14,378 nucleotides of DNA, taken from Chthoniobacteraceae bacterium. GTDB lineage: Bacteria > Verrucomicrobiota > Verrucomicrobiia > Chthoniobacterales > Chthoniobacteraceae. The notes beneath the pieces are model-generated. The model saw only the letters and a program-made list of their open reading frames with translations. It ran no database searches and had not been told where the DNA came from. The stretch lies in contig JANNWY010000129.1 of NCBI GenBank assembly GCA_031409335.1, forward strand, positions 1 through 14,378, given 5' to 3'. The translations under genes were made by a program, and so were the position numbers. Of this stretch, positions 1,140-14,378 are shown piece after piece; within the stretch, counting starts at the first letter, position 1; each line of letters starts with the position of its first letter.

Positions 1140-1871
1140 GTGAATTCCACCAAAGTCCAAAAAGCAGTCCTCCTCGCGGCAGGAAAAGGCACGCGAATGC
1201 GCGAGCTGACTAACGACCTTCCGAAGCCGATGATTCCCGTGCGGGGGAAGCCGATCTTGCAACACATCGTCGAAGGCCTCGCGGCGGCGGGGATCACGCG
1301 TGTTCTGATTGTCGTCGGATACCGTGCGGAAGTCGTGCAGGAATTCTTCGGCGATGGGTCGAAGTTCGGCGTTTCGGTGGAATACACGACGCAGGTCGTG
1401 CAGGACGGAACCGGGCGGGTGGTGGCGCTGGCGGAGGAATTTGCGGGCGCTGATCCATTCATCCTGAGTTACGGCGACATCCTGATTACGCCGGAGAATT
1501 ACAAACGTCTCGTCGATCTCGGCGACGCGGAGGCGCTGGTGAGCGTGAAGCACAATCCCGGCGAAGTCGCAAAGGGCGGCGCGGTGTTTGTGAATGAGCG
1601 TTTTGAGATGACCGATCTCCGCGAGAAGCCGCAGCCGGGCGAGCCGACGAGCCCTTGGTATAACGCGGGCGTTTACACGTTTCGCCCGGGCATTTTCACC
1701 CACATCGCGCAGCTCCAGAAATCACCGCGCGGCGAATACGAACTCACGGATGCGATCCGCGCGCTGGCACAGAGCGGGAAGGTGGTGCGCGTGTTCGAGC
1801 TGACTGGCGAGTGGGCCGATGTGCGCGATCCGGAGGTGCTCGCGGAACTCAACGCCCCGCCAGTCTCCTAG
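1140..1871 (+). CDS. Sugar-1-phosphate nucleotidyltransferase (NTP_transferase family, glucose-1-phosphate thymidylyltransferase-like)
   Basis: KAVLLAAGKGTRM..LT...PKPMIPV.GKPIL, YGD, EKP, NAGVY and SPRGEYELTDA motifs. GTG at 1140 is preferred because the ATG at 1077 lies inside the repeat. Confidence 0.92.
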   Translation: MNSTKVQKAVLLAAGKGTRMRELTNDLPKPMIPVRGKPILQHIVEGLAAAGITRVLIVVGYRAEVVQEFFGDGSKFGVSVEYTTQVVQDGTGRVVALAEEFAGADPFILSYGDILITPENYKRLVDLGDAEALVSVKHNPGEVAKGGAVFVNERFEMTDLREKPQPGEPTSPWYNAGVYTFRPGIFTHIAQLQKSPRGEYELTDAIRALAQSGKVVRVFELTGEWADVRDPEVLAELNAPPVS

Positions 1872-2368
1872 CGATCGGGGTCCAGCACGTCTTCGGTCCT
1901 GTGCTGGGCGAGTTCCGGCCGCTTCAACGTCACCACGAAAACCTGCTGTTCGTAGCTCAGGCTGACGGTGCCATCGCCGATCTGCTGCACGCGGACTTTC
2001 ATCGGCGCGCCGCCCTTTGGCATGCGGATGAATTCGCCCTCGCTGTAGGCACGTCCATTCAAGACGGCGAGCGAGGGATTTCCGAGCATGATGCTCGTCA
2101 CGGTGAATGCGTTTTCGTCGAGCTTTGCCTTCGGCGCCTGCGTGATTTCGGTGCGGGTTTCGTTTTTCCTTTTCACCCAACCGATCGGCCAGAATGGCGC
2201 GCGGCGCGCGGCGGCGAGCGTGAAGGTGGACTTGTTCTTCAAGTCGTATTTTGAGCCTGCCGCACCCGAAGTTGCTTCGGATCCGGCACCGGGCTCGGTC
2301 GCGTGAGCGCTGCCGAGCGCTGTCGCCGCGATGGTCGTGATCAGGATTGTGCGAAGGGATGCGTTCAT
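1868..2368 (-). CDS. Exported protein, PilP/GspC-HR-like (type IV pilus assembly), 166 aa
   Basis: Likely start MNASLRTILITTIAATALGSAHA (signal peptide), overlapping the upstream stop as ATGA. Contains RAPFWP and the beta-rich FTVTSIMLGNPSLAVLNG..YSEGE..VRVQQIGDGTVSL. Fourth of the pilM-N-O-P-like genes. Confidence 0.7.
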   Translation of the reverse strand: MNASLRTILITTIAATALGSAHATEPGAGSEATSGAAGSKYDLKNKSTFTLAAARRAPFWPIGWVKRKNETRTEITQAPKAKLDENAFTVTSIMLGNPSLAVLNGRAYSEGEFIRMPKGGAPMKVRVQQIGDGTVSLSYEQQVFVVTLKRPELAQHRTEDVLDPDR

Positions 2369-2931
2369 TGTTTTACGAGATTGTTGACGGTCATCAGGAT
2401 GTGTTGGGCATCGACGTCTTCGCGGGTGGTATCGATCATCATGGTCGCGATTTCGACGAGCGGTTCTTCGTTTTCGAGTTGGGCGATGGCGGCGGCGAAA
2501 GGGATGAAATCCACCCGCGGCAAATCCACGCTCCAGGAGATGCGCCGGTAGCCAGGAAGGTTTTTGTCGGCGAGTTCCGTGCTCATCCGCGTCGCGGCTT
2601 TGTCCATGCCTTGTTTTTTGAAGAAATCGCCGAGCCGTGTCGGGAACCACGCGACCGGCGAACCGTCGGGAATCATGGCGCTGACTTGCGCCAGCGTTTG
2701 CTGGGCCTTCGGTGCGGCCGCCTCGAGTGTGGCGGTCTTCTTCACCTGCGCGTGGGCGGCGGCGATTTTGGGATCGAGGTCCACGATGTTTTGGCGGACA
2801 CCCGCCTGGCGCTGCGTGAGCGGGCCGAGCAGGATGTTGAAATACACATAAACGAGGCCCACGAGCATCAGGCTGCCAAGGACGAGTTTTTGGATTTCGG
2901 CTTTTCCGAATTTGAAGTCTCCGAGTTTCAT
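2365..2931 (-). CDS. pilO: PilO/GspM-like inner-membrane type IV pilus assembly protein
   Basis: One N-terminal TM helix, then a coiled coil, then a ferredoxin-like C-terminus (FIPFAAAIAQLENEEPLVEI). ATGA-coupled to the upstream gene. Confidence 0.7.
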   Translation of the reverse strand: MKLGDFKFGKAEIQKLVLGSLMLVGLVYVYFNILLGPLTQRQAGVRQNIVDLDPKIAAAHAQVKKTATLEAAAPKAQQTLAQVSAMIPDGSPVAWFPTRLGDFFKKQGMDKAATRMSTELADKNLPGYRRISWSVDLPRVDFIPFAAAIAQLENEEPLVEIATMMIDTTREDVDAQHILMTVNNLVKQ

Positions 2932-3578
2932 TTCTGTTTAGGGATGCGCGCGGGTGCTGCCGGCGCGGGTTCTTCGCTGCTTTGGAATTCGATGTTGATG
3001 GCGAACGTCGCGGTCGGCCGCGCGACTCCGTTGAGTTGCACGGTTTCCACACCGTCTTCCAGCGAGCGGAAGTTGGTCGTGACGTCCTTGTATTTCTTCG
3101 CGAACGATTCCGCGATTGAGGTCCGCAAATCCTCCGCGACCTTGCGCGGATCGGTGCCGGACGAGAGGCCGTCGATCGTGAGACGGCATTTTTTCGATGT
3201 TTCACCCAGCACGTCTCCCGTCATTTTTGTGAGCTGAGCTTCCGGCGGCACGGCATTGACGAGTTGCTCGATCATCGGCGCCCAGTAAAAGCGGCCCTCG
3301 ATCCGCTGCACCATGTTGTCGCCAGCGCGAATCGTCACCGAAAGTTCCTCCTCGCGGGCCTTGGCGGCGATGGCTTTGGGTTCGACGGTTTCGAATTCCG
3401 CCTGCTTCTGCGCAAACTCCTGGTAGATCACCCGCATCTTCGCCAACTGGAAAAAGTAGTATGCGGCGAAACACGCGGCGATCGCGCCGACGCCGATCAT
3501 GGAAAGTTTCAGCGGGTCACGCTTGCGCGCTCGTTCCGCCTGGAGGATTTCGTGATTGAGATTGAGACGTAGGGCCAT
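2928..3578 (-). CDS. pilN: PilN-like type IV pilus assembly protein
   Basis: N-terminal LRLNL motif (cf. the PilN INLLP motif), TM helix, coiled coil, then WAPMIEQLVNAVPPEAQLT..LTIDG. Directly follows pilM. Confidence 0.75.
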   Translation of the reverse strand: MALRLNLNHEILQAERARKRDPLKLSMIGVGAIAACFAAYYFFQLAKMRVIYQEFAQKQAEFETVEPKAIAAKAREEELSVTIRAGDNMVQRIEGRFYWAPMIEQLVNAVPPEAQLTKMTGDVLGETSKKCRLTIDGLSSGTDPRKVAEDLRTSIAESFAKKYKDVTTNFRSLEDGVETVQLNGVARPTATFAINIEFQSSEEPAPAAPARIPKQK

Positions 3579-3581
3579 GGG

Positions 3582-4622
3582 TTATGCAGTCAGGAGTTCG
3601 GCGGCAGCGCCGCAGGCGACGTTGAAATCTTGGGAGTCTTGCGCGAACCGGGCCTTTTTATCCCCGGAGACGGCGACATCGCAGCGCTCGGTCGCGGTCC
3701 ATGCCGAGCAGGGCAGTCGCAATTCTTCGCTCATCACTTTCACGAGCGTTTTCGATTTGGAAGGGCCGCCCGAAATCCAAATCTGCTGGATGGTTTCCTC
3801 GCGACGACCTTCAAAAAATCCGATCGAGCTGCCGATCTCGCGCGTCAGGACCATCAGCGCCATGCGCGTATTTTCGATCATCACCTCGTCCTCCTGCTCG
3901 AGCGCGGTGAAGACGGACTCGCGCGACTCGCCACTGAGCGCCATGAGCGTTTCGATGAGCAGCCTGCCGCCAAAATCGATCTGGCGCACGAGCACCAATT
4001 CGCGCTTCACGCCGATCATCATCGTCGCGCTCGTATGGCCGATATCGACGAGGAAAAATGAGCGCTGGTTGAAGATGTCCGGCTGGGCGAATTCAAACGC
4101 GTTGAACAAACAGATCGGCGCGATTTGCAGCGCGGAAAGCGGCTGGCCGCTTTTGCCAAACAACTCGGAAACCTGGCTCACCTGCGTCCGCGGCAGACCG
4201 CCGACGATGTATTTGCGCTGGCGCATTCCGGCGTTTCCACCGGGTGCCTCGGGCTCGCTCGATGGGATTTCATCGCAATCGAGCACGAAGCTTTTGCAAT
4301 CCTGATTCAGCAGCGCCATGCCGTTCAGCCGCAGCGCGTCGCGGAGGATATTCGTCGGCGTTTCCGGTTGCTCGATGATGCGGATGAGCGCATCCGGGCT
4401 GGAGATGCCGACTGCGCAGGTCTTGCTGCTGCCGCCCATCGTCTTGAGCAAAGTTTTTAATTCGCGCCCGAGCTGATCCACGCTCTCGATCGTCTCCGGC
4501 AGGAGTTGCGAGGCGAAGTGCGTGAGCGCATAACGATTCCCGCTCTTGCGTTGCAGCAACACGGATTTCAGGGAATACCGGCCGAGGTCGATCCCGATGA
4601 CGGAGGTTGGAGCTTTTGCCAT
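3582..4622 (-). CDS. pilM: PilM, actin/FtsA-like type IV pilus assembly protein
   Basis: VIGIDLG..SLK, LVDIGHTS, RQIDFGG, IWISGG.S and the C-terminal VACGAA motif. 346 aa. Confidence 0.88.
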   Translation of the reverse strand: MAKAPTSVIGIDLGRYSLKSVLLQRKSGNRYALTHFASQLLPETIESVDQLGRELKTLLKTMGGSSKTCAVGISSPDALIRIIEQPETPTNILRDALRLNGMALLNQDCKSFVLDCDEIPSSEPEAPGGNAGMRQRKYIVGGLPRTQVSQVSELFGKSGQPLSALQIAPICLFNAFEFAQPDIFNQRSFFLVDIGHTSATMMIGVKRELVLVRQIDFGGRLLIETLMALSGESRESVFTALEQEDEVMIENTRMALMVLTREIGSSIGFFEGRREETIQQIWISGGPSKSKTLVKVMSEELRLPCSAWTATERCDVAVSGDKKARFAQDSQDFNVACGAAAELLTA

Positions 4623-4933: not shown

Positions 4934-4952
4934 GGCGCAATGATTGATTCCA

Positions 4953-5660
4953 ATGTCTGGTAGTTCCCCCGCTGAAAGAGCGTTTTTCGCGCCTCTCGTC
5001 GTCTTCCTCGGCATCATGATGCTCTCCCAAATGGTGAGCGGCATCTTCGATGGCCGCGCTTTCTGGGTCTTTTCCAAGGCGCAATACTGGATGCATCCGC
5101 TCCAGTTGCTCGTCTGCGGCATTCTGCTGATCCGCTGGTGGCACCACTACGAATTCCGCCCGCCGACGCGCGTATTTTTCACCGCGTTCATCGGCATCCT
5201 CGCGCTCGTGCTCTGGGTTTCGCCGCTCGCCTACATCGTCGAGCAATTCTTCCCAAAGCAGATCCGCAAGCCCGGCTTCGATCCCGCGTTCTTCGGCGCG
5301 GACGGCCTGCCGTATTGGCTGAATCTCGCGATTCGCTTCCTCCGCATGGTCATCATCGTGCCGCTCGTGGAGGAAATTTTCTGGCGCGGATTCCTGCTGC
5401 GCTGGCTCATCGACTCGGATTTTTTGAAAGTGCCCTTCGGCAAATTCCAGTGGAAAGCATTCAGCATCGTCACCCTGCTTTTCATGCTGGAGCACACCCC
5501 GCCCGACTGGCCCGCCGCGCTGCTCACCGGCGTGCTGTTCAATCTCGTCGCCATCCACACCCGCAGCCTCAGCTCCTGCGTCCTCGTCCACGCCATCACG
5601 AATCTCGGGCTCGGCCTCTACGTCATGCGCGACATCCCCGGCAGATCAGGTTTCTGGTAA
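4953..5660 (+). CDS. CPBP (Abi/CAAX Rce1-like) intramembrane glutamic endopeptidase, CAAX prenyl protease-related protein
   Basis: Multiple TM helices. EExxxR (VEEIFWRGFL), FxxxH (FMLEH) and HxxxN (HAITN) motifs are all present. Confidence 0.92.
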   Translation: MSGSSPAERAFFAPLVVFLGIMMLSQMVSGIFDGRAFWVFSKAQYWMHPLQLLVCGILLIRWWHHYEFRPPTRVFFTAFIGILALVLWVSPLAYIVEQFFPKQIRKPGFDPAFFGADGLPYWLNLAIRFLRMVIIVPLVEEIFWRGFLLRWLIDSDFLKVPFGKFQWKAFSIVTLLFMLEHTPPDWPAALLTGVLFNLVAIHTRSLSSCVLVHAITNLGLGLYVMRDIPGRSGFW

Positions 5661-5863: not shown

Positions 5864-6050
5864 GGGGCCCTGCGGGCGGCTGAACATCGAACGTCGAACA
5901 TCGAACATCGAAAGCCGGACAAATCCTGCGCTCGCATCAGCTTCATTTGTAGTTCGACGAATTTCTGCGGCGTAGCGCAGTTCAGACTTCCGCGTTCGAT
6001 GTTCGACGTTCGATGTTCGATGTTCGAAGTTCAGCCGCCCGCAGGGCCCC
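5864..6050. repeat. Heptamer-tailed palindromic element, tails pointing inward
   Basis: Perfect 22-bp terminal inverted repeat ggggccctgcgggcggctgaac (5864-5885 / 6029-6050). Inside it are about 4 RTCGAAC units on the left and 5 GTTCGAN units on the right. Confidence 0.92.
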
Positions 6051-6080
6051 AGCCATCAGAACTCAGCGCCCCTCTTTTCT

Positions 6081-6104
6081 AACAAACCTCCGCCCCATCC
6101 GTCT
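6081..6104 (+). promoter_or_regulatory. Candidate ECF-sigma autoregulatory promoter
   Basis: AAC (6081-6083)-N16-CGTCT (6100-6104), the typical ECF -35 AAC / -10 CGT layout, about 90 nt upstream of the ECF gene. Confidence 0.5.
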
Positions 6105-6190: not shown

Positions 6191-6739
6191 GTGAAAATGC
6201 CGGACGAAACCACGACCCCCACGCCGGAATGGGAGACGATCGAGCAGGTCTTCACCGCTCTCGAATCGCCCCTGCTTGCGTATGCGCGGCGGCTGCTCGG
6301 CGATTTCGCGGTGGCGGAGGACATCGTGCAGGACGCTTTTATGAAACTTCACATGCAATTTAAGAAGGTGCTCACGCCCCAGCCGTGGCTCTACCGCACC
6401 GTCCACAATCTCGCCGTCGATCATCAGCGCCGGTCCAACCGCATCACGCTTTTCGGCGATGGCAAAGACGAAGACTCACCCGCCAGCGACACCGCCGATT
6501 CCCAGCCAATGCCCGACGAACAAATCGCGCGCTGGGAAGGCATTGGCCTCGTCCGCCTCGTCCTCGAAACCCTCGACGACCGCAGCCGCGAACTCATCCG
6601 GCTGCGCTTCAACGAAGACCTTTCCTACAAAGAAATCGCCGACCGCACCGGCCTCACCACCGGCCACGTCGGCTACCTGCTCCACCACGCGCTGAAGGCG
6701 ATGGCCGTGGAGTTGGAGAAAACGGAGATCGCGAGATGA
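6191..6739 (+). CDS. ECF-type RNA polymerase sigma-70 factor
   Basis: Region 2: LLAYARRLLGD..AEDIVQDAF..WLYRTVHNLAVDHQRR. Region 4 HTH: LSYKEIADRTGLTTGHV. Alternative ATG at 6197. Confidence 0.95.
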   Translation: MKMPDETTTPTPEWETIEQVFTALESPLLAYARRLLGDFAVAEDIVQDAFMKLHMQFKKVLTPQPWLYRTVHNLAVDHQRRSNRITLFGDGKDEDSPASDTADSQPMPDEQIARWEGIGLVRLVLETLDDRSRELIRLRFNEDLSYKEIADRTGLTTGHVGYLLHHALKAMAVELEKTEIAR

Positions 6740-6755
6740 CTCTGCTGCTCCCCAT

Positions 6756-6900
<145 letters not shown>

Positions 6901-6941
6901 CGCCGGACGCCAACCGGTTCATTTCGCAACCGCATCCATTT

Positions 6942-9900
6942 ATGAATCCCGAAACTTTGCCATCGCCGCGCGAGGAATTGGAAATCCGGCTCACCGCCAT
7001 GCTCATGGGCGAACTCTCGCCTGAGGAAGCCGATGCTTTGCAAAAACAAATCGCCGCCGATTCCGAACTCGCCGCGCTCCACGCGCGGCTGCGTCAGGCG
7101 ATCGAGCTTTTGCGGGAAGCCAGCGCGATCCCCGAGCAACCCGCGCCACCCGTGCCCGCGCAGCTTTCCAGCGAACGCCGTGAGAAACTGCTCGCGCATT
7201 TCAAAGCACCCGCGCCTGCGCCTTCGGCGGTCATTGTGAAACCGAAAAGGAATTGGAAATGGGCTGTGCCGCTGGGGATAGCGGCACTGTTGATTGCGTT
7301 CATTGGCTTACTGCAAATCCAGTATTTGCAGGTTCGCGCACTCGTTGCTGGCTCGGGGGTCTCTGATCCCCGGGGGTTACGGCCATCGCCGCCGCTTTCT
7401 TGGTTTGTTCCCAATAGTCGGTCGGAGGCTCCGGGCTTTCAATCGGAAGGTGGCGGTCTGATGGCCGACAACTCCGCAGAATCGCGCTGGGGCGCTCAGC
7501 CCGGTGCCGTCCGAAACTTTCAGGCCGAGGCGAATGGCCGAGCCAGCGGCACCGCTTCGAATGGGAGGAACTGGATGTTTTGGAGGAAAGCTCCCGCGCA
7601 GGAGCGCGGAGAAACCACCGAGCCTTTGGCCGATGTCAGCCTCGCTTCGGCGGGCGATTCCCTGGCTGCCAGCAATGTCGAATTCGACGTGGATCGCGCG
7701 GCGCAACCGGAGGCGGTGAGGCGATCCGTCCGGTTTGCGGAGCCTGCGCCCGCCGCCACGCCGGCTCCGGCCGCGCAATTGTTCGCGCGTGCGGATGACG
7801 TGAGCACTGCGGAACCTGCCGCCCGACCAGCCCGGATGCCGATCTATTTGGGAACGGAGTCGGAAAACGCGATGGCCGAAAGCGCGCCCGCTCCCCGGCC
7901 TGAAATCGCGGCAATCACCGCGCCCGCTCCGCTTGCTGCGTTCAAGTTGTATTCGGGTTCCGAAGTGAAGACCGCGGAACCTGCTCCTGTCGCGGCTGCG
8001 TTTGGGAATGGCGTGGTCAATGGCGGAGTTCCGGGATCGCTTTCGGTTGGGGGAAAAGTCCAGTCGCCGCAAGGCGTCGCGGCTGTTCGAGGCTCGACCG
8101 CCGCCCTTGGAAATTGGGATCGCGGTGTTTCCAAACACATGGACGGTGCCTTGGGCGACAAGGTTGACGACGGGAACATCGCGCTTTCGGACCTCCCCAT
8201 CGTCGAACCCCACGCAGTCTCTGATCCGTTCTCGACCGCCGGCAAAGTCAATCTGACGCAGCGCGTTGAGGGATTCGAGTCCGCGACCACTGGCACAGTC
8301 CAGCTCCCGAAACTCACCGGACTCGCGCCTTCCGCCGAGACGAAACCCGCGGCTCCCGAGGCATCCAAGCCCGCCGATTCGAAACGCGGGCGCGCCGTCC
8401 AGTGGATGGATTCCGACGGCGATCGATTAGCGGACATTTCACGGGACAAAGACGCGCCCGTTTCCGGCCCCGCCCCCGCCGAGCCCCCAGTGTCGCAGGT
8501 CCTTGCAAGATCGTTCGCAGGCGCAGGCACGCAGGATGTTTCCGGCGCAGCGAAAGGTTGGGAAGCTCGTGAAAAACTGTCCGTCTCCGATCCGAAAGCG
8601 ACGCGCCTCGATCACTTCTACACTGATTTGAACGCGCCGGTTCTGGCAGATGGCACGGTCGCCTCAAAATTGACCTCGGACGGCGCGGGCGGAGGATCGG
8701 CGCTGGGACTCGAACGACTCTCCCGCGTCGAAGGAGATAAAGGGAAGGCGAGCTTCAACGAGAATTTCGCCTACGCGGTGCCCGACGGAGGTGTCACCGC
8801 GCTCGGAGAGGCTCAGAAAAAACTGGCCCTCACCGACGTCGCGGATGGAGAGATGCTCCACCGCAACATCGTTCCCGGCGCTGATGTGGCCGCGCGAGGC
8901 GGTGCGGTGGGCGGGGGAGCGAATGGCAACATCGCGAGTTTCGGAGGGCGGGGCATTCAGGGACGGGACGGGACCAGCTTTGAAACCGGCAACCGGGATG
9001 AATTTGGTGTCACTGCCGGAGTGGAAGTGACGCGCCTTGGCAACAACTTCACGACTTACTCGATCGACTTGGGACTCAGCCCCGCGGTTCGTGAATTTGA
9101 AGGGTTTATCGCCGGGGAAGGAACGAGAGACTCCCGCCGTGCCGCAGGGCAGAAGCCGCAAGAGGCAAGGTCTCAGGATTGGTCTGGGCAAGTGCAGCCG
9201 ACCGCGAAAAACGCACCCGAAGACTTGGTGACCAAATGGGTCTCTGGCGGAGTCATCAATGGAGTGAAACCAAACGTGGAACTCGCGTTCAGAACGAAGA
9301 CGGATGATTTCACCGGCGTCGCCGAACCCGGAATGGAGGACGGTCAAAAGCTAGCGTTTGTCCCTCAAAAAAGTGACGCGGTGTATTTCCAGAAGGAAGT
9401 GCAAGCCGAGGCTGCGGTGCGGACGAAGAGCAAAGCCGCGCCACCCGCCAAGTCCGCCAGCCTGGCCAAAGAATCGAAGGTCGAGACGCGCAGGCTTTCC
9501 GAGAAAGTGGACGAACTCACCACGCTCGCGATTGAGAACCCGGTGTCCCAGATGGTCACGAAGCTGGATGACAAAGAGAGGGTTGCGCTGAACGCGGTTG
9601 ATTTCGTGGAGCGGCCGGCACCCGCGACGGAGGAATCGTTGAAGGAAGTCCGCGAGATGGAAACCGTCGCAGCCGGTGTGAAGGGAGTCGAAGGTCGCGA
9701 ACTGGTGCGGCGAACTGTTTCCCAAAGTCGTTTTCGCGCCACCACCGAGGAGGGAAAGAAGGCTCTGCCGGAGACGATCAACAAAGCGAAGAATGACCCG
9801 GCGAAGCGCGAGTTGGCTGCTCGCACGGACGATTCCAAAAAGGGCGTGAAGGATGTGCAGCGACTCAGCGAAGAAAGCGACAGTCTTGCGCTGACTGTGG

Positions 9901-11753
9901 AATCCAAGGTCCGTGAAGAAATGAGATCCGGGTCGGGGAAAGCCGGGGATGACATTGCCGTGGTCGTCACGACTGGTGAAAAGGAACTCGCGGAGATGCA
10001 GGCGAAACCTGCGGAGGTAAGCGCCGATACAAGCGAATCCGATCGGTTGGTGGATTCCAGATCCCTCATCACCAAAGAATACAAACTGAAGCCGGGTGTC
10101 TCGATCGCTGGGCGAATGGATGCGAAGGAGTTTTTGATAAGCTCAGGTGTTTCATTTCCGCAAGGTTCAGACGTGACCTATCTGGCGTCGTCCAATCGTT
10201 TGATCATACGAACGTCCCCAGAAAGTCTTGGTTCGGTCGAGAAGGTTCTTGCTGGAAAGGCGGTGGCCGAATCACCGACTGCTGAAACGGTGCAAAAAGA
10301 AGTCGGCGAACCGAAGACCGTCGAACTCGCCAAGCTGGAGCAGGCGAGAAAGCAGGTCGCGCTAAAGGATTCCGACGAAAAACCCGCGACGCCGAAACCT
10401 GCCGAGCCCGCGCCCGTGCCGCAGCCGGAGATCGCCACGAGCGCGAATGCGTTTTCCACGTTCTCGCTGAATGTCAGCGACGTCGCGTTCAAGCTCGCGG
10501 GGGCGAGTCTGGAAAAGGGGCAGATGCCGGAGCTGGCGACGGTGCGCAGCGAGGAGTTCATCAATGCCTTCGACTATCGCGATCCGGAGCCCGCGCCCGG
10601 TGCGGCGCTGGCCTGCACCACGGAGCGGGCGCGTTATCCTTTCGCGCAGAATCGCGATCTGGTGCGCTTCTCGGTGAAGACGGCGGCGGCGGGTCGTCAG
10701 CCGGGGCGCGCGCTGAATCTCGTGCTGCTGCTCGACAATTCCGGCTCGATGGAGCGCGCGGATCGCGTGCGCATCCTGCACGAATCGCTGCGCGTGCTCG
10801 CCACGCAATTGCAGCCGCAGGACAAGCTGAGCGTCGTCACCTTCTCCCGCACTCCGCGGCTCTGGGCCGATGGCGTGGCGGGCGACAAGGCCGGCGAGGT
10901 TGCCGCGCGCGTCGGCGAGATCACCCCGCAAGGAGGCACGAATCTCGGCGCGGCGCTCGACCTCGGCTACAAGACGGCGCTGAAACATTACCAGCCCGGC
11001 AGCATCAATCGCGTGGTGCTGCTCACCGACGGCGCGGCGAATCTCGGCGATGTGAACCCGGACGCGCTCAAGCAAAAGGTCGAGGCGCATCGCAAGCAGG
11101 GCGTCGCGCTCGATTGCTTCGGCATCGGCTGGGAAGGCTACGACGACACGCTGCTCGAAGCCCTCTCGCGCAACGGCGATGGCCGCTACGGCTTCATCAA
11201 CACGCCCGACGAAGCCGCGACGGAATTCGCCGCGCAACTCGCCGGCGCGCTGCGCGTGGCGGCGTCGGATGTGAAAGTGCAGGTTGAGTGGAACCCGCGC
11301 CGCGTCACGTCGTATCGGCAGATCGGCTACGCGAAGCATCAGCTCAAAAAGGAGCAGTTCCGCGACAACACCGTCGATGCCGCCGAGATCGGCGCGGCGG
11401 AAAGCGGGAACGCGCTTTACGCCTGCGAAGTGAACCCGCGCGGCGAAGGCGACCTCGGCACTGTCCGCGTGCGTTTCAAAGTGCCAGGCACTTCCGACTA
11501 CAAGGAGCACGAGTGGACCGTGCCCTACACCAAGGACGCCCCGCCGCTCGAACAAGCCAGCCCCGCGCTGCGTCTGGCTGGAACCGCGAGCGCGTTTTCC
11601 GAATGGCTCGTCTCAAGCCAATACGCGACGGAAGTCACGCCCGACCGCCTGCTCGGCCTGCTGAACGGCGTCCCCGCCATCTACGGCGCCGACCCGCGCC
11701 CGCAGAAGCTCGAGTGGATGATCCGCACGGCGAAGAGTGTTTCGGGACGGTAA
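6942..11753 (+). CDS. Large membrane-anchored protein: anti-sigma-like N-terminus, TM helix, long low-complexity region, C-terminal YfbK-type module (vWF_A + VWA + DUF3520-like)
   Basis: N-terminal LTAMLMGELSPEEADAL helical domain. TM segment WKWAVPLGIAALLIAFIGLL. From about 10428: STFSLNV..VRSEEFINAFDY, MIDAS DNSGS...GGTN...LLTDG, then DVKVQVEWNP..YRQIGY. Confidence 0.9.
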   Translation: MNPETLPSPREELEIRLTAMLMGELSPEEADALQKQIAADSELAALHARLRQAIELLREASAIPEQPAPPVPAQLSSERREKLLAHFKAPAPAPSAVIVKPKRNWKWAVPLGIAALLIAFIGLLQIQYLQVRALVAGSGVSDPRGLRPSPPLSWFVPNSRSEAPGFQSEGGGLMADNSAESRWGAQPGAVRNFQAEANGRASGTASNGRNWMFWRKAPAQERGETTEPLADVSLASAGDSLAASNVEFDVDRAAQPEAVRRSVRFAEPAPAATPAPAAQLFARADDVSTAEPAARPARMPIYLGTESENAMAESAPAPRPEIAAITAPAPLAAFKLYSGSEVKTAEPAPVAAAFGNGVVNGGVPGSLSVGGKVQSPQGVAAVRGSTAALGNWDRGVSKHMDGALGDKVDDGNIALSDLPIVEPHAVSDPFSTAGKVNLTQRVEGFESATTGTVQLPKLTGLAPSAETKPAAPEASKPADSKRGRAVQWMDSDGDRLADISRDKDAPVSGPAPAEPPVSQVLARSFAGAGTQDVSGAAKGWEAREKLSVSDPKATRLDHFYTDLNAPVLADGTVASKLTSDGAGGGSALGLERLSRVEGDKGKASFNENFAYAVPDGGVTALGEAQKKLALTDVADGEMLHRNIVPGADVAARGGAVGGGANGNIASFGGRGIQGRDGTSFETGNRDEFGVTAGVEVTRLGNNFTTYSIDLGLSPAVREFEGFIAGEGTRDSRRAAGQKPQEARSQDWSGQVQPTAKNAPEDLVTKWVSGGVINGVKPNVELAFRTKTDDFTGVAEPGMEDGQKLAFVPQKSDAVYFQKEVQAEAAVRTKSKAAPPAKSASLAKESKVETRRLSEKVDELTTLAIENPVSQMVTKLDDKERVALNAVDFVERPAPATEESLKEVREMETVAAGVKGVEGRELVRRTVSQSRFRATTEEGKKALPETINKAKNDPAKRELAARTDDSKKGVKDVQRLSEESDSLALTVESKVREEMRSGSGKAGDDIAVVVTTGEKELAEMQAKPAEVSADTSESDRLVDSRSLITKEYKLKPGVSIAGRMDAKEFLISSGVSFPQGSDVTYLASSNRLIIRTSPESLGSVEKVLAGKAVAESPTAETVQKEVGEPKTVELAKLEQARKQVALKDSDEKPATPKPAEPAPVPQPEIATSANAFSTFSLNVSDVAFKLAGASLEKGQMPELATVRSEEFINAFDYRDPEPAPGAALACTTERARYPFAQNRDLVRFSVKTAAAGRQPGRALNLVLLLDNSGSMERADRVRILHESLRVLATQLQPQDKLSVVTFSRTPRLWADGVAGDKAGEVAARVGEITPQGGTNLGAALDLGYKTALKHYQPGSINRVVLLTDGAANLGDVNPDALKQKVEAHRKQGVALDCFGIGWEGYDDTLLEALSRNGDGRYGFINTPDEAATEFAAQLAGALRVAASDVKVQVEWNPRRVTSYRQIGYAKHQLKKEQFRDNTVDAAEIGAAESGNALYACEVNPRGEGDLGTVRVRFKVPGTSDYKEHEWTVPYTKDAPPLEQASPALRLAGTASAFSEWLVSSQYATEVTPDRLLGLLNGVPAIYGADPRPQKLEWMIRTAKSVSGR

Positions 11754-11816
11754 GCGCACTCTGAATATGTCCACCCCGTTTCTCCGCACCTCCGCACCGC
11801 ACTCCGGGAACATCCT

Positions 11817-12002
11817 AGCCCCAAAGGGGCGGAACAACCCAGCCCAGGGCAACGCCCTGGGTTTGGCCCAGAGAGACGGCGAAGCCCTGAAGGGGCGACA
11901 CAACGCGACGATGTTTTTGTCCCGCCCCTTCAGGGCTCGCCGCCTTTGTCATCGGGAACCCAGGGCGTTGCCCTGGGCTGTGTTGTTGCAGCCTTTCAGG
12001 CT
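11817..12002. repeat. Nested palindromic REP/REPIN-like element (CCCAGGGCAACGCCCTGGG type)
   Basis: Perfect 24-bp inverted repeat at 11840-11863 / 11957-11980, each arm itself a hairpin. Inner perfect 15-bp inverted repeat at 11883-11897 / 11923-11937. Outer gcccc-aaa-ggggc / gcct-ttc-aggc hairpins. Confidence 0.9.
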
Positions 12003-12030
12003 GCGGGAAGCGGCGGGCGGCTTCGCCGCT

Positions 12031-12106
12031 GCGGTGGGGCGCGGCGTGCGCGGTGGGGCGCAACGTGCGCGGTGGGGCGCAACGTGTGCGGTGGGGCGCG
12101 GCGCGG
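12031..12106 (+). repeat. 19-bp tandem repeat, four copies
   Basis: gcggtggggcgc(gg/aa)cg... units start at 12031, 12050, 12069 and 12088. Confidence 0.9.
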
Positions 12107-12194
12107 CCGGGTCGTCACAAATCCCGCACGCACTTTTGACAACGCTCTGACATCCCGACCAACCGACTCTGCAAATTATCCCAATCCTACTCGC

Positions 12195-14378
12195 ATGAAA
12201 AACATGACCCACGGCTCACGCCTCGCTGCTTCGAAACCCGGTTTGTGCCCGCGAAAGACGCGAAAGGACGCGAAAACTTTTCCGCATTTCCTTTCGCGCC
12301 TTTTTGCGTGTTTCGCGGGCCTCCTCTCGGCTGCGTCCCTTTTCGCGCAGACGGCGGAGATCAAAGACCCCGCCATCAGCGGCGGCGTCGCGGATGGCAA
12401 AATGCGGATCGTCATCGAAGGCCTGCTCAACGGCCAACCGGGCGACAAGGACAAGCTCATTTTCGCCACCGCGTATCAGGACTCCATCAAGATCACGCGC
12501 GAGAAAATCACCCACAACATCGGGATGACGATCGACATCCTGCAGGGCGATCCAAAGGAGATTCCGCTCGCGATTGCCGGCGAGGGCGAAATCAAGAAAG
12601 TCACGGGCGATCAAGTCCAGGACTGGAGCATCCGGCAGGAGACCGATGGCAAACGCACGCTCATCATCCGCCCGAAGAAGGGCGAAAAACCGTTCAACCA
12701 AGTCATCGCGTATGTCATCGCGGAGCGTGAGCTGAAGTCGTGGAAGAACCCGCTCGCGACCTTCGCGCTCGCGCCACCGCAGTCCGTCCTCTTCAGCGGT
12801 TTTGTGAAGGTGGAAGCCACGCCCGATCTCGACGTGCAGCCCGATGCGCCGACCGGTCTGCTGCCGATGGAAGCCAAGTATCTGCCCGGAACCCTCCAGG
12901 CCGAAATCAAACCCGAAGACCCCGAGCCGCTCGCGTTTCAATTCCACGGCGCGGCCTACACTCTGCCGCTGCGCATCACCGTCGCCGATCCCGAGACGCG
13001 CCAGGTTGTGCTGCGCGACTTCAAACTCACCGGCACGCTCGCGGAGCAAAACGCCGCCTTCATCCTGACGGCCACCGCGCGCGTGACGAATCCAAAAGGC
13101 GGCTCGCTCAACCTGCTCGCCGGCGGACTCGCGCTCACCGAACTCCCGCCGCATCCCGACTGGCGGATTGTTTCAAGCAACGGCCAGCTCCGGCTCGTCT
13201 TCGACAAGCCCGGTGACTTCCCGCTCTCGTTCAAATTCAACGCCGCGGTGAAGCAGAACGGCGCGTGGAATGCGGTCGATTTCCGCGTCGCGCCGAGCGC
13301 GCTCCAGCCGATTATCCTGCAAGGCCTCGCCGCGGACACGCAGTTCGAATTCGCCGGCGCCGCGCGCCCGGAGCGCACGGGCAATGACTTCGCGAGCTTC
13401 CTGCCGCCGGATGGTGCGGTGAAACTCTCATGGAAAACCGCCGCGCCTGAAGCCGAGGGCAAACTTTTCTACGCCGCCGAAATGCTCGCGCAGATCAGCG
13501 TCGGGCCGGGGCTGATGCGGCAGTCCGCGCTGCTCGATTGCAAAGTCATGCAGGGCGAACTCGGCCAGGTGACGCTGCTCATTCGCGGCGCGGGCGAGGT
13601 CACGCGCGTGCAGGGCGAGCAGGTGCTCGCATGGAAAGTCGAGCCGGGCGCGAACGCGGGCGAGCGCAAGCTGGTCGTGCAGTTCAATCAGCCGCAGAAG
13701 AATCAGTTCACGCTGCACGTGCAGACGCAGACGCCGATCGGTGCGTTCCCGCAGACGGTGGAGGCGATGCAGCTCCGGCCCGAGGGTGCGACGCGCTTCG
13801 CCGGATATTTCCGCATCGTGAACGAAGGCGCGGTGCGGCTCGAAGTCGTCGAGTCGAAGGGGCTCTCGCAGATTTCGCCTGAGCAGTTTCCCGAGAGCGA
13901 CGCGACCAAGGCGGCGTTCCGCGCAGCGGGCGAACAGAAGTTTGCGTATCGTTTTTCCGGCGCGGATTTCGCGCTGCGCATTCAGGCGGATCAAATCCTG
14001 CCTGAGCTGACCGTTTCGCAAGTCCTCGCGTATCAGCTCGGCGAAACCGAACTGAGCATCGACGCCGAGATCGAGATCGACGTGCGCGAAGCCCCGCTGC
14101 GCGAACTGCAACTCCGCGTGCCGAAAGGTTACGCCGTCGCGAAGCTGAACGTGGCGGGCTTGAGCGACTACTTTCTCCGCGACGCGGACGAAGATGCCGA
14201 GCTGCGGCTGGTGTACGCGCAGCCCGTCTCGGGCCGGCAGGTGATCCAGCTTCGCCTGGAAAAAAATGCGGCGCTCGGCGCGGCGGAGTGGGTGCTGCCG
14301 CGGATCGACGTGACGAAAGCGAAGTCCGTGCGCGGTCATATCGCGGTGACCGCCGACGCGGGTTTCCGGCTCACCGCC
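12195..14378 (+). CDS. Very large exported hypothetical protein with repeated beta-rich domains (3' partial, at least 728 aa)
   Basis: The frame from ATG 12195 (alternative 12204) reads MKNMTHGSRL...FAGLLSAASLFA/QTAEIKDPAISGG... and is still open at the window end (...HIAVTADAGFRLTA). Strong GC3 bias. Absent from the ORF track because no stop falls in the window. Confidence 0.9.
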   Translation, partial: MKNMTHGSRLAASKPGLCPRKTRKDAKTFPHFLSRLFACFAGLLSAASLFAQTAEIKDPAISGGVADGKMRIVIEGLLNGQPGDKDKLIFATAYQDSIKITREKITHNIGMTIDILQGDPKEIPLAIAGEGEIKKVTGDQVQDWSIRQETDGKRTLIIRPKKGEKPFNQVIAYVIAERELKSWKNPLATFALAPPQSVLFSGFVKVEATPDLDVQPDAPTGLLPMEAKYLPGTLQAEIKPEDPEPLAFQFHGAAYTLPLRITVADPETRQVVLRDFKLTGTLAEQNAAFILTATARVTNPKGGSLNLLAGGLALTELPPHPDWRIVSSNGQLRLVFDKPGDFPLSFKFNAAVKQNGAWNAVDFRVAPSALQPIILQGLAADTQFEFAGAARPERTGNDFASFLPPDGAVKLSWKTAAPEAEGKLFYAAEMLAQISVGPGLMRQSALLDCKVMQGELGQVTLLIRGAGEVTRVQGEQVLAWKVEPGANAGERKLVVQFNQPQKNQFTLHVQTQTPIGAFPQTVEAMQLRPEGATRFAGYFRIVNEGAVRLEVVESKGLSQISPEQFPESDATKAAFRAAGEQKFAYRFSGADFALRIQADQILPELTVSQVLAYQLGETELSIDAEIEIDVREAPLRELQLRVPKGYAVAKLNVAGLSDYFLRDADEDAELRLVYAQPVSGRQVIQLRLEKNAALGAAEWVLPRIDVTKAKSVRGHIAVTADAGFRLTA
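12247..12320. repeat. Palindromic element of ACGCGAAA-type units inside the 5' end of the large CDS
   Basis: gcccgcgaaagacgcgaaaggacgcgaaa ... tttcgcgcctttttgcgtgtttcgcgggc, an imperfect inverted repeat with a 16-nt loop. Confidence 0.85.

Follow-up and report, generated by a model that had tools for sequence, protein, structure and literature searches.

A secretin N3 domain in the periplasmic stalk of a putative ECF anti-sigma factor from Chthoniobacteraceae, and repeated capture of envelope protein pieces among its orthologs

The segment at positions 10065-10253 of a contig from a Chthoniobacteraceae bacterium encodes what is, by sequence comparison and structure prediction, a secretin N3 domain copied from a pilus secretin of the Amuc_1098 type. 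The domain is located in the periplasmic stalk of a VWA/YfbK protein of 1603 amino acids (aa), a putative and likely membrane-bound anti-sigma factor encoded next to an extracytoplasmic function (ECF) sigma factor. In this family, the stalk has repeatedly captured in-frame pieces of a few envelope proteins, and N3 has entered it at least five times. The window, i.e., the whole stretch of DNA that was analyzed, is the complete contig C129 (JANNWY010000129.1; 14,378 nt) of a 7.9-Mb genome, and the closest named homologs of its proteins are from Chthoniobacterales, Verrucomicrobiota. The case is built on the origin of the segment, its predicted fold, the repeated and independent capture, the bias in reading frame and in donors, and the slot in front of the VWA block in which pieces are swapped. 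We propose, at a probability of roughly 40%, that the window's N3 was copied in frame into this swap-prone slot and that the stalk acts as a self-mimicking bait reporting on envelope machines.

The VWA/YfbK protein and its stalk are composed of the following features.

6942..11753 (+): 1603-aa YfbK/VWA protein with the anatomy of an anti-sigma factor, ECF226/ECF289-like
6942..7241 (+): likely cytoplasmic anti-sigma domain, residues 1-100 (NF010501 at residues 16-135)
7254..7334 (+): single transmembrane helix, residues 105-131 (hydropathy)
7335..10430 (+): periplasmic stalk of about 1030 aa, of low complexity and hypervariable, a mosaic of captured pieces
8067..8285 (+): two joined pieces of Verru_Chthon cassette protein A, residues 376-448, from donor residues 1037-1077 and 1136-1192 (blastp, TIGR02600, DNA)
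8979..9110 (+): short secretin C-domain piece, residues 680-723 (blastp E 0.022; secretin hidden Markov model E 2e-4)
9777..9908 (+): probable remnant of a Skp/OmpH-like chaperone, residues 946-989 (blastp E 0.007; DNA 72% over 92 nt, E 3e-5)
10050..10259 (+): Amuc_1098-type secretin N3 domain lacking its Gly-rich loop, residues 1037-1106; includes 10065-10253
10431..11750 (+): vWF_A, VWA and YfbK_C/DUF3520 block (Pfam)

In the C-terminal block, Pfam places vWF_A at residues 1164-1242, VWA at 1259-1422 and YfbK_C from 1436 onwards, and the metal ion-dependent adhesion site (MIDAS) motif DNSGS is intact at residue 1265. The NF010501 match of the N-terminus is weak (E 0.006). Residues 1-100 are conserved among orthologs (75% with P0003) and putatively bind the ECF sigma factor. 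Control of the protein by proteolysis would follow from this anatomy.

A sequence-only reading of this DNA had singled out 63 residues as a secretin N-domain of the verrucomicrobial type, fused upstream of the VWA domain. These residues are the exact translation of 10065-10253 (+), i.e., residues 1042-1104 of open reading frame (ORF) 6942-11753, and 60 residues separate them from the vWF_A/VWA/YfbK_C block. The proposed identity is borne out by a protein family, by the host genome and by the predicted folds. NCBIfam NF042912 (Amuc_1098_fam) matches residues 1052-1108 (whole-protein E 1.6e-10); with 39.7 bits against a cut-off of 750, the VWA protein is not a full-length secretin. A tblastn search of the same genome points to a secretin on contig C33 (50% identity over 52 aa, E 4e-13; secretin residues 474-525), which exceeds the NF042912 cut-off with 859 bits. 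The window's N3 is homologous to the domain directly before the secretin C-domain; it was aligned with 43 secretins and is nested among them in a tree. A Gly-rich loop of 29 residues in the donor secretin is missing from it. Secretin_N (PF03958) is the sole Pfam family matching the 63 residues. The expected Pfam assignment fell short of the gathering cut-off (E 0.16; 12.7 bits against 28.2), while Secretin_N homology and fold held. True N3 domains of Amuc_1098-type secretins score equally weakly against Secretin_N (8 of 44 alignment members at E ≤ 1, best 0.0083), and for this reason the window's N3 is classified from its descent and its predicted fold, without a claim to Pfam membership.

AlphaFold2, supplied with the secretin alignment, predicts strands and helices in the order E8-13, H26-33, E42-46, E51-56 and H58-72, with a mean confidence (pLDDT) of 76.6. 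From the single sequence the same elements are obtained (pLDDT 79.9, pTM 0.63), so that the β-α-β-β-α pattern read from the letters is predicted with and without an alignment, and this copy is still predicted to fold by itself. Its flanks are poor in order-promoting residues. When VIA-align was run against 48,161 chains, ranks 1-6 were secretin N domains (Z 7.1-6.4), headed by XcpQ (4e9j; Z 7.1, root-mean-square deviation 2.8, 65 aligned) and PilQ (6w6m; Z 7.0). Taken alone this result is middling, as nothing reached Z 8 and KH domains follow less than 1 Z behind. It is also partly circular, the model having been built from the alignment; the checks on it are the single-sequence model and the ESM Atlas, in which the top two matches are Secretin_N clusters (0.90 and 0.89). 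A sequence search of solved structures gave nothing useful for the 63-mer or for the alignment. An assembly artefact was considered and rejected, since read contigs from two sequencing runs span N3: a single X1 contig is identical to the window over the whole of 6900-10499, and a single X2 contig shows 2 differences over 8862-10447. Both runs are from one study, and X1 may be the source sample.

N3 is rare in this position. The ortholog set consists of the 120 closest of 2324 matches, with VWA blocks that are 77-100% identical. Within it, N3 occurs in 6 proteins; in a set of 155 loci with DNA it occurs in 12, duplicates counted. A conserved module it is not. A search with the window segment returned one other protein only, a membrane protein of a different family, and no close relative with the same insert was found for the window's copy. 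In the closest relative, P0004, residues 1-965 of the window protein have a collinear counterpart, and a piece of Wzc takes the place of the Skp-like remnant and N3. Small insertions and losses of cassette A sequence further distinguish the two stalks. N3 of the window protein is thus a capture peculiar to it, and one that has already diverged.

Besides N3, other borrowed pieces are found in the same stalk, and they are not in donor order. The cassette A pieces match genome ORFs by blastp (E 2e-8 and 1e-7), TIGR02600 (E 7e-8) and, at 75% over 69 nt, DNA. The piece at 9777..9908 resembles a gene behind bamA that we take to encode a Skp/OmpH-like protein. The same phenomenon is seen throughout the ortholog set. 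Secretin pieces (117 in total) were detected in 68 of the 120 stalks and in none of one reversed and five shuffled controls, and 92 of the 120 stalks hold a piece of some gene of this genome, compared to 0 of 2895 reversed windows. The best-hit donors amount to 30 ORFs. The contig C33 secretin is the best hit in 58 stalks, cassette A in 54, Wzc in 12, a pilin in 9 and BamA in 6; a porin-like protein, autotransporter-repeat proteins, other secretins of the genome (two stalks each) and a few more complete the list. Several of these family names are presumed from the donor sequences. All 30 donor ORFs look exported or membrane-bound when their sequences are read, and no housekeeping cytoplasmic gene is among them. 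The exported-only claim rests on this reading because the export filter is too loose: it flags 56% of 4362 called genes and, of 19 donors, misses 2 secretins that both seem to carry a signal peptide. The pieces are not spread evenly. Together with the N-terminus, the stalk measures 458 to 1562 residues among orthologs; long pieces crowd the slot before VWA (11 of 11 Wzc pieces and 24 of 42 secretin pieces within 150 aa), and pilin pieces come after the membrane helix (median 0.16 of the stalk).

Capture was repeated and in frame. Across 138 distinct stalks, 72 secretin pieces are in the donor's frame and none in the five other frames, where stop-free stretches would allow 0.8-2.5 pieces per in-frame piece. 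When 25 pieces from 16 genomes were compared with 43 secretins, the secretin of the host genome came first for 11 and within the first three for 17. In the case of the window's N3, the own secretin ranks third, behind those of L163 (53% identity, against 45% to the own) and the same-genus L134. Its donor therefore belongs to the same secretin sub-clade but is not demonstrably the resident gene. In a tree of N3 domains (61 rows, 108 columns, many forks open), the starred branches leave no fewer than five origins for the 15 YfbK rows, and the YfbK copies of L046 (100/96) and L121 (100/93) are sisters to their own secretins. A single ancestral insertion of a whole secretin followed by decay was rejected, as the order of the pieces is not that of the donor and they cluster with the secretins of their hosts.

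How these observations could come together as a sensor is proposed as follows. The N-terminal domain would hold the ECF sigma factor at the inner membrane, and the VWA/YfbK head would bind a ligand via its MIDAS site; cleavage of the stalk would start regulated proteolysis, freeing the sigma factor to fire its CTAA-N18-GTC promoter. These steps are borrowed from the family. From the pattern of capture, we further suggest that the borrowed pieces present surfaces of the secretin, cassette A, Wzc, pilin and BamA, and that chaperones, unassembled subunits and proteases of these envelope machines may also bind or cut the stalk. No single piece would be essential; pieces would be gained, kept for a while and replaced.

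Selection on the inserts gives a mixed picture, and it is here that a second explanation has to be weighed. Length, solubility and compatibility with export might be all that is required of the stalk. DNA of strongly transcribed envelope genes would then keep entering it by illegitimate recombination, only in-frame and export-compatible pieces would survive, and they would decay without a sensing role, the window's N3 being one fossil among them. Such tolerated filler is nearly as probable as the bait. In the lineage of Chthoniobacter flavus (L074 vs L195), the ratio of nonsynonymous to synonymous substitution rates (dN/dS) is 0.14 for TPR, 0.23 for N0 and 0.16 for N3 (95% interval 0.07-0.33), compared to 0.48 (0.36-0.63) for the stalk upstream of the insert. 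The whole TPR-N0-N3 insert of this lineage is clearly under purifying selection, which speaks against filler. Filler also has difficulty with the dominance of two donors and the lack of housekeeping cytoplasmic genes among the 30, with the zero wrong-frame pieces, with the preference of folded pieces for one slot, and with the recurrence of the same domains in unrelated sensors (see below).

A number of results weigh against the bait proposed here or in favor of filler. Pooled over 20 pairs, which are not independent of each other, dN/dS is 0.31 for secretin pieces, close to that of the remaining stalk (0.37) and well above that of VWA (0.09). In L069/L071, the TPR insert drifts (0.76; 0.44-1.57). 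Between the window's N3 and secretins, dN/dS is saturated and carries no information. This copy lost 10 of 27 highly conserved secretin N3 positions, RNTQ..DL included, and kept 17; its branch is long (1.17 vs 0.1 for the own secretin) and its G+C content at third codon positions is low (0.53 vs 0.84 in VWA). Turnover is very fast: on the VWA tree the pieces are patchy, with 13 changes for 13 Wzc carriers and 25 for 34 TPR carriers. Many captured pieces comprise 20-40 residues, unable to fold alone, and such sub-domain pieces stand in shuffled order. A donor was not detected for 28 of the 120 stalks, and orthologs share kinship, so that the counts overstate independent events. The frame bias could also arise if peptides read in a wrong frame, being rich in Arg, prevented export and were therefore eliminated. 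Moreover, the donor genes lie outside the predicted regulon and lack the ECF motif upstream, and the sigma factor therefore does not obviously control what it would monitor. Lastly, the Amuc_1098 secretin is reported, in the part of the source available, as the most abundant outer-membrane protein in Akkermansia (PMC4960237), which would make its gene a frequent template.

The rapid exchange of stalks could alternatively serve evasion, the stalk being swapped between lineages and varied to escape proteins of phages, predators or competitors, with envelope genes as the nearest compatible source. P0031 and P0033 would be a case in point, with VWA blocks 99% and N-termini 91% identical and stalks of about 47%, and so would the patchy distribution on the tree and the closer match of the window's N3 to the L163 secretin than to its own. 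Still, no region with dN/dS reliably above 1 was found in the pairs compared, the topology would place the stalk in the periplasm and not at the cell surface, and the donor bias is left unexplained. We consider this explanation improbable.

The sequence-only reading had gone further, suggesting that an inner-membrane anti-sigma factor with a secretin N-domain could co-assemble with or sense a pilus secretin, and noting that the neighboring operon lacks one. In the window, a pilMNOP-like operon at 1868-4622 (-) precedes the ECF gene on the other strand, and it is indeed without a secretin, none being present in the window. Co-assembly would mean that N3 joins the secretin ring and links the anti-sigma factor to the pilus, replacing or sensing the missing secretin. 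The predicted N3 fold agrees with this, a stalk of about 1000 residues could by its length span the periplasm, and inner-membrane proteins that contact secretins are known, as described for GspB/OutB in the accessible part of a preprint (10.1101/2021.08.06.455404). The link with the operon did not survive, however: pil, CAAX and nucleotidyltransferase genes adjoin 0 of 154 ortholog loci, where the fetched flanks reach about 0.3-7.8 kb upstream of ECF and leave room for a looser pil link. The gene pilM was found in 18 of 19 related genomes and, where both could be placed (G001, G002, G022 and G053), lies on another contig or about 125 kb from the ortholog locus. A conserved pil-operon link was rejected on these grounds, and the adjacency of pilMNOP and the VWA gene is likely incidental. 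The donor secretin belongs to another pil operon, on contig C33, and stand-alone secretins on contigs C161 and C83 could serve the window's operon. With N3 in 6 of 120 orthologs, no close relative with the same insert and conserved secretin positions lost, a dedicated co-assembly module is not what is seen, and we judge co-assembly tied to the neighboring operon very improbable.

Captured secretin domains are not confined to YfbK proteins. An N3 profile matched 2256 cluster representatives. Among the best 150, which were inspected (Pfam was run on 35 of them), are 18 M56 peptidases, 8 YfbK proteins, 2 other anti-sigma-like proteins and 29 relatives of the giant protein encoded behind the VWA gene, besides many tandem copies. 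Members of the giant-protein family carry secretin TPR, N0 and N3 inserts, and L181 has a secretin insert. One of the seven PF00263 matches in the genome is an M56 sensor on contig C260. It would be a wider claim that Verrucomicrobia possess an integrated-decoy system, in which the stalk of the ECF anti-sigma factor, M56 sensors and the giant partner sample in-frame pieces of the cell's own envelope machines by a capture that is directed to the locus and ongoing, so that any agent binding, misfolding or cutting these machines would set off the sensor as well; this we hold to be rather unlikely.

Further examples within this genome can be listed. At C260:9948-11816, a BlaI/BlaR-like pair includes an M56 protein ending in an Amuc_1098-derived secretin C-domain piece. 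Contig C287 (L010:1440-6014) encodes a 1525-aa membrane protein with an N0+N3 insert of an Amuc_1098-type secretin (NF042912 E 4.5e-41), of which P0122 is a relative with a similar insert. A secreted protein on contig C160 (L009:6331-8046) has N3 and two secretin-like C pieces, a thioredoxin-fold protein on contig C245 (L011:3467-7063) has an N3-like piece, and the periplasmic part of a Ser/Thr kinase beside an ECF-like gene (C110:33343-31475) resembles the Wzc piece of YfbK stalks. A second, more distant YfbK-type anti-sigma factor of the genome is L040 (C221:7661-10402); in relatives of its subfamily (L051, L052), a short secretin-like stretch or a C-terminal STN-like domain can be seen by eye.

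The genes and sites around the VWA gene, which bear on the output of the putative sensor, are the following.

6079..6103 (+): predicted ECF-type auto-promoter, CTAA-N18-GTC, with -35 TCTAAcAAA and -10 CGTC (ortholog spacing; genome matrix scan)
6191..6739 (+): sigma factor of the ECF type that probably pairs with the VWA protein (Pfam Sigma70_r2/r4; TIGR02937 above cut-off)
12195..14378 (+): 5′ part of the third gene in a conserved operon, encoding a giant exported protein (adjoins in 128 of 154 ortholog loci)

The ECF gene adjoins the VWA gene directly upstream in 132 of 154 ortholog loci, and CTAA-N18-GTC with equal spacing is found 5′ of the ECF gene in 108 of 115. The conserved form of this auto-promoter is TCTAA-x-AAA ... 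CGTC/TGTC. In a genome scan with a matrix from 100 distinct sites, 6079-6103 comes out on top with 28.5 bits. Only one other site exceeds 14 bits; this second-best site precedes a 445-aa gene on the minus strand of contig C230, which starts near 18380. With looser patterns, the matches listed include a few more genes, for secreted proteins, and no donor. That the donors are regulon members of the ECF sigma factor was rejected, as the motif scan, the only means applied, finds no ECF promoter motif upstream of them. In relatives, the giant protein of this operon has a length of about 2100-2300 aa. It contains internal repeats; the part in the window (12195-14378) has no Pfam or NCBIfam match.

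Compared to known systems, the closest counterparts are the anti-sigma factors of ECF226 and ECF289, for which the portion available of Casas-Pastor et al. (PMC7826278) describes putative anti-sigma factors with DUF3520 and a von Willebrand domain. They share with the window protein a gene at +1 of the ECF gene (here 6191-6739 followed by 6942), one transmembrane helix and a C-terminal VWA plus DUF3520. ECF226 includes Verrucomicrobia, whereas the -10 element matches the CGTCTxA of ECF289, which is proteobacterial and has a -35 of CCCAAGGA. ECF226 is reported there without conserved promoter and context, both of which are conserved here. The candidates favored for this sigma factor are ECF226 by taxonomy and ECF289 by the -10 element. 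In the same portion of that source, the description of both groups mentions no secretin, captured pieces or hypervariable stalk. A precedent for an envelope domain in an anti-sigma factor is found with ECF255, whose anti-sigma factor has a TonB C-terminal domain, borrowed from an envelope machine and proposed by the authors as a sensor, and whose neighbor is a VWA-DUF3520 protein with a carboxypeptidase-regulatory-like domain (PMC7826278, same portion). There the architecture is fixed, as far as that portion describes it; here, the stalk draws on several donors, contains pieces smaller than a domain, has captured from resident genes again and again, and exchanges its pieces rapidly.

Other systems resemble the window protein in part. 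The Amuc_1098-family secretin (NF042912; PMC4960237) is the donor of N3 and of TPR, N0 and C-domain pieces in orthologs, but the window protein differs from it by an inner-membrane anchor, the lack of a β-barrel and the presence of only two secretin pieces. The N0 fold is common to secretins and to signaling domains of TonB-dependent receptors, according to the available part of PMC3093366. BlaR1-type M56 sensors are likewise inner-membrane proteins and carry the same N3 or secretin pieces or STN domains, although their output is protease/repressor and not ECF. The vWA force transducers of Planctomycetes, Verrucomicrobia and Chlamydiae (PVC) bacteria, as far as the accessible part of PMC12204202 goes, have in common a membrane helix, a disordered linker and a C-terminal vWA fold, and differ by an SHLS motif and tolQR-like neighbors. 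Membership of this TolA/TonB-like group was rejected: helix 105-131 contains no His, and the conserved neighbors are the ECF and giant genes instead of tolQR-like ones.

Plant NLR receptors with integrated decoys have repeatedly gained copies of the cell's own proteins in independent fusions. Independent integration of own protein copies is also found here, unlike in plants in a bacterial and periplasmic protein, and with many pieces too short to fold. Our literature search, which left most subscription papers and parts of the ECF supplement out of its reach, returned no paper that describes VWA anti-sigma factors with secretin pieces; the capture process is apparently undescribed, the use of borrowed envelope domains having its precedent in ECF255.

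The window further contains a small GIY-YIG gene and an Rce1-like CAAX protease gene, as well as intergenic repeats at 11760-12180, 5950-6060 and 6740-6930, which we take to be typical repetitive extragenic palindromic (REP)-like elements. Those after the VWA gene (11760-12180) have inverted arms of the GCCCTGGG/GCCCTTCAGG type; those around the ECF gene (5950-6060, 6740-6930) consist of tandem cgatgtt/cgaacat units.

651-986: small GIY-YIG gene (Pfam)
4944-5660: Rce1-like CAAX protease gene (Pfam)

In practical terms, proteins of this kind get mis-annotated as secretins or autotransporters, as their source names show. A cultured carrier exists in C. flavus Ellin428 (L074), and the predicted promoter could be used for a reporter. 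VWA/DUF3520 anti-sigma factors are an unstudied family, and the finding offers a testable idea of the signals to which they respond. It also records a stretch of a bacterial gene into which parts of a small set of resident envelope genes are copied repeatedly and in frame, at times with purifying selection acting on them. If the pieces are bait, they would constitute a prokaryotic parallel to the integrated decoys of plants and a way for fast retuning of a sensor; if they are filler, the stalk would still show, with unusual clarity, how domains are being shuffled in nature.

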